Positions 2,921 through 16,900 of a stretch of 52,845 bases of DNA are shown piece by piece. Made by a program: the position numbers and the translations under genes. The stretch lies in IMG/VR virus record IMGVR_UViG_3300044825_001160, positions 1-52,845 of that record; one strand, 5' to 3'. How positions within the stretch are numbered: the stretch's first letter is position 1; every line of letters starts with the position of its first letter. The notes beneath the pieces were generated by a model, which did not search any database, was not told the origin of the DNA, and saw only the letters and a list, made by a program, of their open reading frames with translations. The DNA comes from a virus (taxonomy: Duplodnaviria; Caudoviricetes).

Positions 2921-3412
2921 TTACGGGCCAGTGAAGCTGGTCGGGTAGATCGAACCATCCGGCTGACGAACGATGTAAGCGATGTTGGCCGTAATAGCGC
3001 CCGTACCGCCACCACCGTTGGACTGCGTAAACGAAATAATCGCGTCCGTAGGACCGACGTTAGCCACCAGATCCGGGCGAACTGAACCCAGAGCGATTGT
3101 AGCTACGCCCGTAGCGCCTGCGGCAGGGGACGAAATTACCGTCGCTCCCGTGATTGCCGTGCCATTCACAAAAAACGTAAACGTCGGGTTAGTGGTCGTA
3201 TACGCCGTAGTGATAATAAGCTGGATGTCCCAGATAGCGGAACCTGCCGGAAGCACTGCAAGCTGTGTCTGGGCAGTAGTATCGGTGTAGGCGATGTTCT
3301 TGAACTGAGCCACCGGGGTAGCCCCCAGATTGCGGATCGTCCCAGCGGTGGTGCCGGTGGTGTTGCGTACCGTGCCAAGCAGCCACGGCCCAAGATGAGT
3401 TGCAAGTCCCAT
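2921..3412 (-). CDS. Virion structural protein (putative head-associated)
   Basis: Likely start ATG 3412 (MGLATHLGPW) with GAGGA RBS; Thr/Gly-rich. Confidence 0.6.
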   Translation of the reverse strand: MGLATHLGPWLLGTVRNTTGTTAGTIRNLGATPVAQFKNIAYTDTTAQTQLAVLPAGSAIWDIQLIITTAYTTTNPTFTFFVNGTAITGATVISSPAAGATGVATIALGSVRPDLVANVGPTDAIISFTQSNGGGGTGAITANIAYIVRQPDGSIYPTSFTGP

Positions 3413-3424
3413 GAAAGAGTCCTC

Positions 3425-3494
3425 ATGCACGAGTCGCTACGTCATCTGTGCATCGTCCCTCTAGGCAGGGCTGACGTAGCTGAAAAAGCCTAGA
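3425..3494 (-). ncRNA. Structured cis-RNA with two pseudoknot-type pairings; candidate Mu-gpT-DE-like motif
   Basis: Complementary pairs 3436-3444/3472-3480 (9 bp), 3457-3460/3467-3470, 3461-3466/3488-3493 and 3425-3430/3448-3453; intergenic, downstream of the capsid gene. Confidence 0.6.
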
Positions 3495-3504
3495 ACCTGT
3501 CCGC

Positions 3505-3533
3505 TATATACCCGTAACCAGCAAAGGCGTCAA
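3505..3533 (-). promoter_or_regulatory. Putative sigma70 promoter
   Basis: TTGACG-N17-TATATA on the minus strand; predicted +1 just upstream of the structured RNA. Confidence 0.5.
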
Positions 3534-4129
3534 GGAGTGGTGGGAAGAAGCAGCTTGTTCGACTTAGCCAAGTTTTCTTCGCGGGTTATAATACGTAAGT
3601 TCCACGGAACGTGCAGACCGCAAACGATGTCAGACCGCAAAGGAACAATGTGATCTACTACGTATTGTTCTCCGGTTATCTTGGTCATTGTTATAGCGGT
3701 TTGATATATCTGGCGGATCTCTGTTTTTTGTCTGCGTGACAGCCACGGCGGTGCGGCTTCCCGATGCCTCCGACGACGAGCTTTCGTATCAGCCCGTATT
3801 TTGACTAAATTATTTTGTTTCCAGTTATTTCTGTACTCACGTAACTGGGCTGCAGGGCGTGTAGTAGCTCTCTGTATTACAGCACTACGATTAGCCGTGT
3901 ACCAAGCGTTTTTACGGTCTTTAACCGTTTCCATACGGTTGTAGGCAAAAAAATAATCACGACGTTTTTCATTATTACTTTGCCATTCGACCTTTAAGCA
4001 CTCAATACAAGCACCTTTCGTTTTTCTGGGGGCTATGTGGCCGTGTTTACATGGGGTTCCCGTGAAGTAATGAGCAGCGCCGATTGCCTTAGCTTCAGCA
4101 CGGGTTTTGGGAAGATCTGCGAAATCCAT
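3530..4129 (-). CDS. Free-standing HNH homing endonuclease
   Basis: C-terminal VDHIVPL...VCGLHVPWNLRIITREENLAKSN HNH motif; N-terminal YFTGTPCKHGH...CIEC Zn module; visibly lower GC than the capsid gene. Confidence 0.85.
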   Translation of the reverse strand: MDFADLPKTRAEAKAIGAAHYFTGTPCKHGHIAPRKTKGACIECLKVEWQSNNEKRRDYFFAYNRMETVKDRKNAWYTANRSAVIQRATTRPAAQLREYRNNWKQNNLVKIRADTKARRRRHREAAPPWLSRRQKTEIRQIYQTAITMTKITGEQYVVDHIVPLRSDIVCGLHVPWNLRIITREENLAKSNKLLLPTTP

Positions 4130-4158
4130 AAAACGCTCCTGTAGACTTAGTTACAGGT

Positions 4159-4187
4159 AACGTATCTGGGCGGAAGTAAGAAGTCAA
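4159..4187 (-). promoter_or_regulatory. Putative sigma70 promoter for the HNH gene
   Basis: TTGACT-N17-TACGTT directly after the capsid terminator; AGGAG RBS precedes the ATG. Confidence 0.5.
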
Positions 4188-4190
4188 GAC

Positions 4191-4219
4191 AAAAAGAAAG
4201 GGGCCCGAAGGCCCCTTTC
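4191..4219 (-). terminator. Intrinsic terminator after the major capsid gene
   Basis: GAAAGGGGCC-TTCG-GGCCCCTTTC-TTTTT; 10-bp stem, cUUCGg tetraloop, U-tract. Confidence 0.9.
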
Positions 4220-4227
4220 AAGTCGCG

Positions 4228-4240
4228 TAAGTGCTTGATT
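4228..4240 (-). promoter_or_regulatory. IHF-consensus site
   Basis: AATCAAGCACTTA matches WATCAA-N4-TTR. Confidence 0.45.
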
Positions 4241-4242
4241 TA

Positions 4243-5154
4243 TCAGGTGGAACCTGACGAACCAAAGACTCCAAGCGGGTCCGACCAGCCAAAGCTGTAA
4301 CGCTCGCGGCTCTTGTAACGGACATTTCCCGTGTCAAAATCACCATCCATTGAGTTTTGCAGCGGGGTACGGACGAAGTGCTTCAGGCCATTCGGTACAT
4401 CCGTCAGGAGGAACCAAGCATTGGTGTCCGTCAGGAAGTGGTTGACCTTGTAGCCTTCCGGGATCGAGCCCATGGCCTTGAGGGCGTTGATGTCGTTGTC
4501 GGTCGTCCCAACACGGAGTTCCGTATCGAGCAGACGCTTGGCAACGAACATCAGTGCCGGGGGCACGACGAGCTTGCGGGGCTTGGCGGCGATAAGCAGG
4601 TTACGCTCATCCGTCCAAGCTGCGATCTGAATGACTGCCGCCTCAAGGGAGGTTTCGTTCAGGTCAGCCTGCGTGGTGAACGTGTTGCTGTTGACGCCGC
4701 CGGAGACGATGGGGTGTGCGGTCGAGAACAGAGCGACACCGTCACCGCCGGGATTGGCGGCGCTGAAGCCGTTGTTCAGGATCGACGCCGCCTTCACCTG
4801 CTTGGTGTACGCCATTGCCCGGGCGAGAGCCTTGGTGTAGCGCTTGCTGAGAGAATCATAGAGGTTGTCCTCTACGGCCTCTTCAGTGATGCTGAAGCCA
4901 AGAGCAATCGTCTCGTGGTTGTAACGGGCGGTCCATGCTTCCTGCGCATTGTCATACGCAATTGCAGAACCTTCCGCCTTGACCGGAGCAGCCGAGAAAC
5001 CCGACAGCTTGGTCTCCTCTTCAAAGGAACGCTCGGAGGTTTCTACTTCGTAGATCTCCTTGTGCTCTTCTCCGTAGGTGTTGTACTCCATGCCGAACAG
5101 AGCGTTCAGGCCGGGGAGCAGTTCTTTCAGTAGTTGTGCGCGTGAAATAGCCAT
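4243..5154 (-). CDS. Major capsid protein (Mu gpT-like family)
   Basis: 303 aa, MAISRAQLLKELLPGLNALFG... to ...RERYSFGWSDPLG, recognised from related phages; strong codon bias; followed by a strong terminator. Confidence 0.9.
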   Translation of the reverse strand: MAISRAQLLKELLPGLNALFGMEYNTYGEEHKEIYEVETSERSFEEETKLSGFSAAPVKAEGSAIAYDNAQEAWTARYNHETIALGFSITEEAVEDNLYDSLSKRYTKALARAMAYTKQVKAASILNNGFSAANPGGDGVALFSTAHPIVSGGVNSNTFTTQADLNETSLEAAVIQIAAWTDERNLLIAAKPRKLVVPPALMFVAKRLLDTELRVGTTDNDINALKAMGSIPEGYKVNHFLTDTNAWFLLTDVPNGLKHFVRTPLQNSMDGDFDTGNVRYKSRERYSFGWSDPLGVFGSSGST

Positions 5155-16556: not shown

Positions 16557-16900
16557 GCAAGCACGGGGAACAGGACATGAGCTACAGAGACGTGAACTAC
16601 AACAAGATCGGCCTTGCACACAACCCGGAGCCGCCCGATCCCGGGCCGAGCGAGGAGGAGCGGATCGAGTACAAGTACAGCCAGATCCGGGACAGCGAGT
16701 GGCACATCGACCGGTGCTTTGAGGGTGATGAGAAGCTGGTAGCCCATCTTGCGCGCTTGCTCGCTCACTACCGTGAGCACCCGGGGGGAGACCTGCGCCC
16801 CATCGTGGACGCATTGAACGAGTGGCTGGACAGTGAACTGTGGGAGTACGCCAAGATCATCGTGTCTGAGCGTAACAAGCGTGGCGACTATGACTTCTAA
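16553..16900 (+). CDS. Hypothetical protein
   Basis: ATGA overlap start (MSKHGEQ); a downstream Met is an alternative start. Confidence 0.6.
   Translation: MSKHGEQDMSYRDVNYNKIGLAHNPEPPDPGPSEEERIEYKYSQIRDSEWHIDRCFEGDEKLVAHLARLLAHYREHPGGDLRPIVDALNEWLDSELWEYAKIIVSERNKRGDYDF

Follow-up and report, generated by a model that had tools for sequence, protein, structure and literature searches.

The leader of phage T4 gene 32 contains a pseudoknot that serves as an autogenous translational operator for a product needed in stoichiometric amounts, pseudoknots also occur in the operators of the ribosomal proteins S15 and S4, and in the SAM-II and preQ1-II riboswitches an H-type pseudoknot sequesters the Shine-Dalgarno (SD) sequence. 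Published accounts describe translational repression of gene 32 (PMC535899), a pseudoknot in the feedback control of ribosomal protein L20 (PMC1888825) and SAM/SAH riboswitches in which the knot has its 3′ strand over, or in touch with, the SD site. By genomic position, a further relative is the Rfam motif Mu-gpT-DE (RF03012), which is so far without an assigned function. One paper counts it as one of five families for which the Rfam structure is not the same as that in ZWD, in a set for which CaCoFold adds covarying pairs. The main text of Weinberg et al. (2017) contains neither 'gpT' nor 'capsid'; its supplement, the probable place of the motif description, lay outside our literature search and may already draw a pseudoknot for Mu-gpT-DE. 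Within that search, no paper was found that describes the leader reported here, and a query on pseudoknots, SD sites and translational repression in bacteriophages returned no paper with the term 'decoration protein'.

The RNA considered here lies on the minus strand of the Caudoviricetes record IMGVR_UViG_3300044825_001160 of IMG/VR, of which the whole stretch of 52,845 nt was analysed (hereafter the window), and precedes a gene predicted to encode a capsid cement (decoration) protein. Like the T4 gene 32 leader, it would be a 5′ pseudoknot ahead of a phage gene with a stoichiometrically required product, but the two have no relation in sequence or architecture and the T4 regulator is a nucleic-acid-binding protein; we know of no RNA-binding activity of cement or capsid proteins. 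With the ribosomal-protein operators it shares a pseudoknot at or near the ribosome-binding site and the possibility of feedback on proteins that assemble into a large particle; those operators, however, belong to cellular genes, and their regulators bind mimics of rRNA. Gene 32 and the ribosomal-protein operators are nonetheless precedents for feedback by an assembly protein. The SD-sequestering riboswitches have the same topology as the window RNA but differ from it otherwise, as it has no Rfam match, few conserved unpaired bases and a structural gene downstream. Our data indicate that Mu-gpT-DE and the window RNA are both leaders of cement genes, with folds that engage the ribosome-binding site; the new points are that an orphan motif gains a likely role, that the fold has a second pseudoknot, and that two folds are exchanged at the same gene.

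The double pseudoknot in the window and its relatives

A reading of the window made from its sequence only had claimed four interlocking pairings behind a promoter and ahead of an ATG, and every pairing element that it quoted is present on the minus strand between 3493 and 3425. The parts of the leader and the gene that follows it are:

3505–3533, minus strand: promoter-like element, read from the sequence, with −35 hexamer TTGACG (3533–3528), a 17-nt spacer and −10 hexamer TATATA (3510–3505)
3493–3488, minus strand: strand A, CUAGGC, the 5′ strand of the first pseudoknot, whose partner is the loop of hairpin H
3480–3472, minus strand: strand B, GCUACGUCA, the 5′ strand of the 9-bp enclosing stem
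3470–3457, minus strand: hairpin H, consisting of CCCU (3470–3467), the loop GCCUAG (3466–3461), which is A′, and AGGG (3460–3457)
3456–3454, minus strand: junction ACG between hairpin H and strand C
3453–3448, minus strand: strand C, AUGCAC, the pseudoknot strand whose partner is C′
3447–3445, minus strand: junction AGA between C and B′
3444–3436, minus strand: strand B′, UGACGUAGC, the 3′ strand of the enclosing stem, followed by GACUC before C′
3430–3425, minus strand: strand C′, GUGCAU, directly 5′ of the SD sequence GAGGA (3424–3420)
3412–3410, minus strand: start codon ATG, which opens the downstream cement ORF
2921–3412, minus strand: cement/decoration protein gene (163 aa, from sequence matches), the candidate regulated gene

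The pairing of strand A can be extended to UUCUAGGC from 3495. Judged from the window sequence alone, these pairings are not above chance: the nested fold of the element has z = 0.19 against shuffles, single-sequence folding being uninformative for pseudoknots, and shuffled partners match the observed length of C:C′ in 6% of trials and that of A:A′ in 3%. It is comparison with relatives that places the pairings on solid ground. At 3439–3444, within B′, contigs of two sequencing runs (X7 and X9) lack one base at 3439 and have an additional G behind 3444; they are too short to reveal a matching change in strand B.

Relatives were collected by a cement-protein search of viral contigs, which gave 43 loci, and a covariance model of the leader (R1) was built on 29 unique leaders. 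R1 matches 44 of the 46 first sources, with one match per source that ends at the ATG, and finds a single match in the whole window; the two first sources without a match are Planktothrix phage Pag-Yong1 and a locus with a weak protein match. A metagenome scan with the cement alignment confirmed at least 595 stretches. Of the 80 loci kept from it, R1 matches 72, every match ending at the ATG. The eight R1-negative loci comprise five on incomplete contigs and three of a variant leader class. In loci anchored on the capsid gene (capsid genes 85–90% identical), the leader was found in 68 of 80, always directly 5′ of the next gene.

The sequence-only reading had named covariation as one check on its pairings, and covariation is found in the stems and, in the form of many sequence versions, in the knot helices. 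The alignment used for the stems holds 88 leaders in 86 distinct rows, and in it stems B and H together are paired in 98.8% of cells versus 65.8% in shuffles, with compensatory (both-side) changes at 12 of 12 pairs. Stem B by itself is paired in 99.1% of cells and shows both-side changes at nine of nine pairs, and all three modelled pairs of hairpin H covary. The covariation score of B and H is 0.857 versus 0.212 in shuffles, a value reached by none of 500 shuffles, and in a control with the partner slid by 1–3 columns, 24–39% of cells were paired. As G-U pairs occur on the minus (sense) strand, the signal is that of an RNA of the sense strand.

The knot helices slide by 1–2 columns between classes in a second covariance model (R2, comprising A:A′ and C:C′), and C:C′ and A:A′ were therefore scored per sequence, by helix finding with permutation controls, rather than by column. 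All 88 leaders contain a contiguous C:C′ helix of at least 5 bp (5 bp in 8, 6 bp in 60, 7 bp in 18 and 8 bp in 2), which occurs in 28 sequence versions, for example AUGCAC/GUGCAU, AUAUAC/GUAUAU, CAUAGAA/UUCUAUG, UAGUAG/CUACUA and GCACAC/GUGUGC. A:A′ reaches at least 5 bp in 81 of the 88 leaders and 4 bp in three, in 27 versions such as CUAGG/CCUAG, CUGGG/CCCAG, CCGAG/CUCGG, CCGGA/UCCGG and CCAAG/CUUGG. When partners were permuted among unique leaders, a control that like the shuffles ignores shared ancestry, the observed sum was 425 versus 336 ± 7 for C:C′ and 433 versus 356 ± 8 for A:A′, and none of 5000 permutations reached the observed value in either case. A simple cross-control of C against the downstream regions of other sequences overlaps the own values (own mean 6.2 versus 4.8), because many C versions share a CAUGC core. 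The junction bases A, C, G and A are kept in 79, 82, 82 and 86 of the 86 distinct rows, respectively.

A:A′ is absent in four of the 88 leaders, and the unique leaders that lack it number five (L017, L022, L032, L034 and L079). Four leaders without it stand directly behind a terminator and have jointly lost A and shortened the loop of H; B, H and C:C′ are retained. In three other leaders, about 110 nt upstream of the cement ATG (L042, L043 and L044), an extra hairpin stands between B′ and the SD and holds C′ (CUGCAA) in its loop, where the C:C′ contact is a loop-strand interaction.

In 66 of the 88 leaders (for example L100, L006, L011, L020 and L083; the window is excepted), A can also form a local hairpin, P0, with the 4–5 bases just 5′ of B. 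P0 excludes A:A′, and all three strands change jointly between classes, as in a two-state switch; the alternative between P0 and A:A′ would suit a switch. One form that such a switch could take is a riboswitch, in which a small molecule at the junction (A, AC, GA) would stabilise the knot and thereby switch translation. The nearly invariant junction bases and the alternative pairing speak for this, as does the layout, since several small riboswitches, such as SAM/SAH, place an H-type pseudoknot next to or on the SD. We nevertheless regard a riboswitch as quite improbable, as only about five unpaired bases are conserved, the gene product is a virion structural protein with no metabolic link, and no Rfam riboswitch model matches at E-values up to 10.

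Upstream of the pairings, the TTGACG-N17-TATATA promoter of the sequence-only reading is present in sequence and spacing and receives 9.5 in our own scoring, but the promoter scan of the window did not call the pair, because TATATA is without a T at position 6. Across the relatives, the best −35/−10 match ends 17–25 nt before stem B in 75 of 87 leaders (mode 21), and scores of at least 9 occur in 37 of the 87 compared with 8% of shuffles. With the transcript start placed by the promoter-like element, strand A would lie about 2–6 nt from it. A role at the 5′ end is not universal, given the leaders without A:A′ and four further leaders (L039 and L042–L044) in which A:A′ is kept but which lie behind a terminator without a promoter-like element.

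A position directly behind a promoter-like element, heading a long same-strand run of structural genes, would also be expected of a put-like RNA, that is, a promoter-proximal structure that modifies RNA polymerase to read through the terminators of the late operon. This is very improbable here, as RNAs of this kind can lie anywhere relative to a ribosome-binding site, whereas the 3′ strand of the present RNA tracks the SD or the AUG in all classes, and some loci carry the RNA directly behind a terminator and have no promoter.

The cement gene and the insertion site upstream

The 163-aa product of the downstream gene shares 38% identity with the protein annotated as cement in phage DSL-LC04 (E = 3e-8) and 36% over 73 aa with the product of the gene behind Mu-gpT-DE. 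A profile built from 17 homologs gives a nearly full-length match to PDB 7eel chain H, 'Cement (decoration) proteins' (E = 5e-4). From these matches, the gene appears to encode a capsid cement/decoration protein. A tblastn search of the cement protein against cultured phages gave nothing at 1e-3; DSL-LC04 was reached via capsid DNA and Roseobacter phage CRP-901 via its Mu-gpT-DE locus. In the capsid-anchored loci (L318–L397) the capsid genes are 85–90% identical, yet the gene behind the leader is very diverse and keeps only its N-terminal arm, either M-x-x-[ST]-T-F-x-G-P or M-G-L-A-T-H-L-G-P-W, with one group starting MALSTTQSIWRSGGGD; in these loci the leader travels together with the N-terminal arm of the cement-position gene.

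Upstream of the leader, the window contains the following features:

4243–5154, minus strand: major capsid protein gene, Mu gpT-like (PF25209, 1.3e-15; PF10124, 6.9e-10; PHROG 371)
4186–4219, minus strand: intrinsic terminator-like hairpin behind the capsid gene, from the terminator scan (hairpin at 4219–4196)
3530–4129, minus strand: HNH-type homing endonuclease-like gene (199 aa, from PHROG matches), not part of the RNA

The terminator and the HNH gene that the sequence-only reading had placed between element and capsid gene are thus both in place, and HNH-free relatives exist. The Rfam search also gave terminator-type chance matches in the region of the terminator-like hairpin. The 199-aa ORF matches PHROG 1035 (endonuclease VII, 9e-17) and PHROG 26577, has a weak match to Pfam HNH_4 (E = 0.042) and a C-terminal DH...N...N motif in its translation, and shows no relative of solved structure at E-values up to 1; its stop codon, TGA at 3532–3530, falls inside the −35 hexamer. 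The HNH-like gene is absent from most relatives, its family being present at the site in 7 of 122 loci (55–99% identity) in phages with differing leader versions. Four capsid-anchored loci hold, directly behind the terminator, an ORF with the same N-terminal sequence as the window HNH, and among the other inserts at the site are one clear PF01844 HNH and ORFs with a weak GIY-YIG resemblance. The HNH gene is missing from public contigs that span the site, one joining 3485 to 4242 with 122 other letters and another joining 3512 to 4236, and a third contig, from the same run as the latter, keeps the gene. The interval 3530–4235, from the capsid terminator to the cement promoter and leader, is a recurrent hot spot for insertions of homing-endonuclease-like genes. 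The insertion site is also seen in L009, L013, L019, L033, L038, L051, L059, L079, L093 and L100, and further in L103, L106, L111, L119, L332, L368, L377, L380, L384 and L388, where its genes include small Zn-ribbon/HNH-like ORFs on either strand.

Such insertions separate the RNA from the capsid gene and leave it at the cement gene. From the end of the capsid gene to the cement ATG there are 111–250 nt in 71 of the 98 loci that hold the capsid C-terminus and 341–1826 nt in the other 27, and in these the leader still stands at the cement ATG. In one locus (L024, 695–2689) a single capsid gene is followed by three cement paralogs in tandem. No leader stands between the terminator and the first of them, stop-start coupling joins the second to the first, and the double-pseudoknot leader occurs only at the third, at a distance of about 1.5 kb from the capsid gene. 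The RNA ends at the downstream ATG in every locus examined, across insertions and in the locus with three paralogs, which agrees with the 5′ leader proposed by the sequence-only reading; the comparison of loci supports the view that the RNA belongs to the cement gene rather than to the capsid gene.

The same loci bear on two other readings. A 3′ element of the capsid gene, or an independent small RNA, would be consistent with a place downstream of a Mu-gpT-like capsid gene, as the 'DE' in the Rfam name suggests. We find this scarcely credible, as a terminator and, in the 27 loci above, an insert intervene, the cement ATG is never left, the RNA precedes the third paralog in L024, and no terminator comes after the RNA. 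The independent small RNA, which had been offered as an alternative to the leader, is unlikely because C′ runs directly into the ribosome-binding site and ATG, the terminator scan finding no terminator-like site between 3425 and 3412. A self-cleaving ribozyme or a processing site that parts the capsid and cement transcripts would account for a compact double pseudoknot with few invariant junction bases between two highly expressed genes; it is highly improbable, since no Rfam ribozyme family matches at E-values up to 10 and most loci have their own promoter, so that processing is not needed. HDV-like, pistol and twister ribozymes were also considered, and the strand order A-B-H-A′-H′-C-B′-C′, by our own comparison, fits none of them.

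Relation to Mu-gpT-DE

The sequence-only reading had named Mu-gpT-DE as a possible match and had suggested a search of the Rfam models. No Rfam model matches the element: with Rfam 15 (all models, including riboswitches and ribozymes) only terminator-like chance matches appeared elsewhere, and RF03012 itself, for which the Rfam gathering cut-off is 49 bits, has no match at the element at E-values up to 10, only a 9.8-bit chance match at 16895 over the whole record, none in 20 relatives at the gathering threshold and none in 10 variant loci at E-values up to 10. As a positive control, 10 of 10 true Mu-gpT-DE loci score 50.9–75.5 bits with RF03012. The suggested link is accordingly wrong as a model match and right in that the two are sister motifs in the same niche.

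The RF03012 consensus, seen via the weak chance match, ends in AGGAGAUuaACAUG, and a pattern taken from it recovers true Mu-gpT-DE members in viral contigs, whose consensus CCCUGACAGcc...ggCUGACAcUAGCCAcGACAGGAGAUuaACAUG comprises an outer stem CCUG/CAGG and an inner hairpin. With AGGAG and AUG at the end of its Rfam consensus, Mu-gpT-DE is a leader too; the sequence-only reading was right to favour a leader, and its contrast between a leader and a capsid 3′ element dissolves. The gene behind Mu-gpT-DE starts MGTTTFSGPIRAGNIRNTTGTT, is about 155 aa long and is homologous to the cement proteins of DSL-LC04 and of the window, that is, it belongs to the same protein family as the window cement protein (36–38% identity, E = 1e-6 to 3e-8). 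In cultured Roseobacter phage CRP-901, the gene order is capsid, terminator, Mu-gpT-DE and cement.

Both RNAs occupy the same niche, behind a Mu-gpT-like capsid gene and terminator, just behind a −10-like element and ending at the cement ATG; in the window the capsid gene is 750 nt away owing to the HNH insertion. By eye they also share a layout, consisting of a stem, A (or G), a hairpin closed by C-G, AC, the knot strand, N-GA, the stem, a linker and the knot partner, and the junction bases of the Mu-gpT-DE layout are the nearly invariant ones of the window family. Mu-gpT-DE differs in its length of 53 positions, in a 4-bp outer stem with its 3′ strand in the SD, in a 5–7 bp hairpin with a short loop, in the place of the knot partner (start codon and codon 2), and in having no A:A′. 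In the window RNA, by contrast, the stem measures 9 bp and stands upstream of the SD, the hairpin has 3–4 bp and a loop paired to the 5′ end, and the knot partner borders directly on the SD. The outer stem of Mu-gpT-DE contributes its 3′ strand, CAGG, to the SD AGGAG, whereas B′ in the window (3444–3436) lies 11 nt upstream of the SD, which only C′ abuts. The Mu-gpT-DE loop strand is complementary to UGG plus codon 2, with CCC accompanying GGU in 42 of 42 unique leaders and GCC accompanying GCU or GCG in 19 of 19; as one pair in two states, this loop/codon-2 covariation counts as modest evidence.

Neither R1 nor RF03012 finds the other family. Both kinds of leader do, however, occur before closely similar genes. 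Among 80 loci whose cement gene is 63–100% identical to that of a Mu-gpT-DE-linked locus (L133), 12 carry a window-type leader, with R1 scores of 35–40 bits, outside the training set, and with cement genes 80–88% identical. Within this set, RF03012 matches 10 of 12 R1-negative loci and none of 8 R1-positive loci. The window-type RNA and Mu-gpT-DE thus stand as mutually exclusive alternatives at the head of the same gene. The window RNA is best described as a longer, doubly knotted structural variant of the Mu-gpT-DE kind of element, and is not a member of RF03012 by model. Two folds swapped before very similar genes offer a clean case of modular exchange of cis-regulatory RNA in phages. Weak R1 matches also occur at a second place in two Mu-gpT-DE-bearing contigs (L137, 10196–10279, minus strand, 19.2 bits, E = 0.18; L138, 1627–1710, minus strand, 16.5 bits, E = 1), ending ...CUUGUGCAGAAAGGA, and could reflect chance or a remote copy ahead of some other gene.

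Contact with the ribosome-binding site

In the 88 leaders, C′ overlaps the SD-like tract in 56, abuts it in 13, is 1–3 nt off in 14 and lies further away in 5, so that it overlaps, abuts or comes within 3 nt of the tract in 83. A variant leader class upstream of the cement ATG (L053–L055, L058, L061, L103, L116, L119, L121 and L328), for which R1 scores are weak or none, has (U)CCUCA as strand C and the SD itself, UGAGG(A), as C′. The three classes can thus be described as covering AUG and SD (Mu-gpT-DE), covering the SD (the variant class) and abutting the SD (the window class). In the window, C′ ends one base before GAGGA, which is unpaired, so that a block at this site would have to act sterically or through stacking; the fold might even assist in presenting the SD site.

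The comparative analysis shows the cement leader to be an H-type pseudoknot in which stem B encloses hairpin H and strand C, with C paired to C′ just 5′ of the SD site, and in which a second pseudoknot links A, at the putative 5′ end of the transcript, to the H loop. It likewise shows a constant place of the RNA between a promoter-like element and the ATG, and in the sister classes a direct pairing with the SD or the start codon. We propose that the folded RNA would sit against or on the ribosome-binding site and gate the access of the 30S subunit, and this gating would set or regulate the amount of cement protein relative to capsid protein; burial of the 5′ end, as a second role, should protect the mRNA. 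Control of the initiation of cement translation, with 5′-end burial as a second role, is in our judgement the probable function of the leader, and is favoured because contact with the ribosome-binding site is common to the three classes.

The second of these roles might also be the main one. 5′-terminal stems protect bacterial mRNAs, strand A lies within a few bases of the start placed by the promoter-like element, and the first bases of Mu-gpT-DE, CCUG, are also in a stem just behind a −10-like element, all of which would suit a knot that hides the 5′ end of the cement mRNA from 5′-end-dependent decay and has no real role in translation. We consider such a stabiliser unlikely, as it leaves unexplained the tracking of the SD by C′ within 3 nt in 83 of 88 leaders, the identity of C′ with the SD in the variant class and the Mu-gpT-DE loop strand that follows codon 2, and as the leaders without A:A′ keep B, H and C:C′.

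Under initiation control, we infer the transcript start, an effect on translation, its direction and the existence of a trigger. The most likely trigger would be an assembly protein of the phage that represses by feedback; a ligand is possible, as is the absence of any trigger. Feedback by an assembly protein is attractive, given that a 1:1 ratio of cement to capsid protein can be required; with equal copies of both needed, a constitutive repressor looks paradoxical. For phage GP4, 540 copies each of cement and capsid protein are reported. A more specific version would be an operator that senses assembly, in which free cement or capsid protein would bind the knot, with the N-terminal arm as the putative binding part, and shut off cement translation until capsids can take up the protein; Mu-gpT-DE and the double pseudoknot would then be interchangeable folds through which factors of one kind meet a common A / AC / GA junction. 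The arm M-x-x-T-T-F-x-G-P, or its H-L-G-P-W form, is kept even where the rest of the cement protein is swapped. We offer this version tentatively and think it rather unlikely; if true, it would provide a function for an orphan Rfam motif and, as far as we know, the first described RNA-level feedback loop for a virion decoration protein.

The function of these leaders is directly testable in cultured phages, with CRP-901 representing the Mu-gpT-DE type and DSL-LC04 the window type. In addition, the size of the family (at least 595 confirmed cement loci in one metagenome scan) provides a natural series in which the scaffold slides from the start codon to the SD to a position abutting the SD, useful for how pseudoknots tune initiation. 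Planktothrix phage Pag-Yong1 (L001), one of the first sources without an R1 match, has a different, GC-rich structure in its capsid-to-minor-capsid gap (3855–3958, minus strand), in which ACCGUCUCC is complementary to the SD region GGAGACGG in this single sequence, by eye, and which may be a third, unrelated way to engage the same ribosome-binding site.
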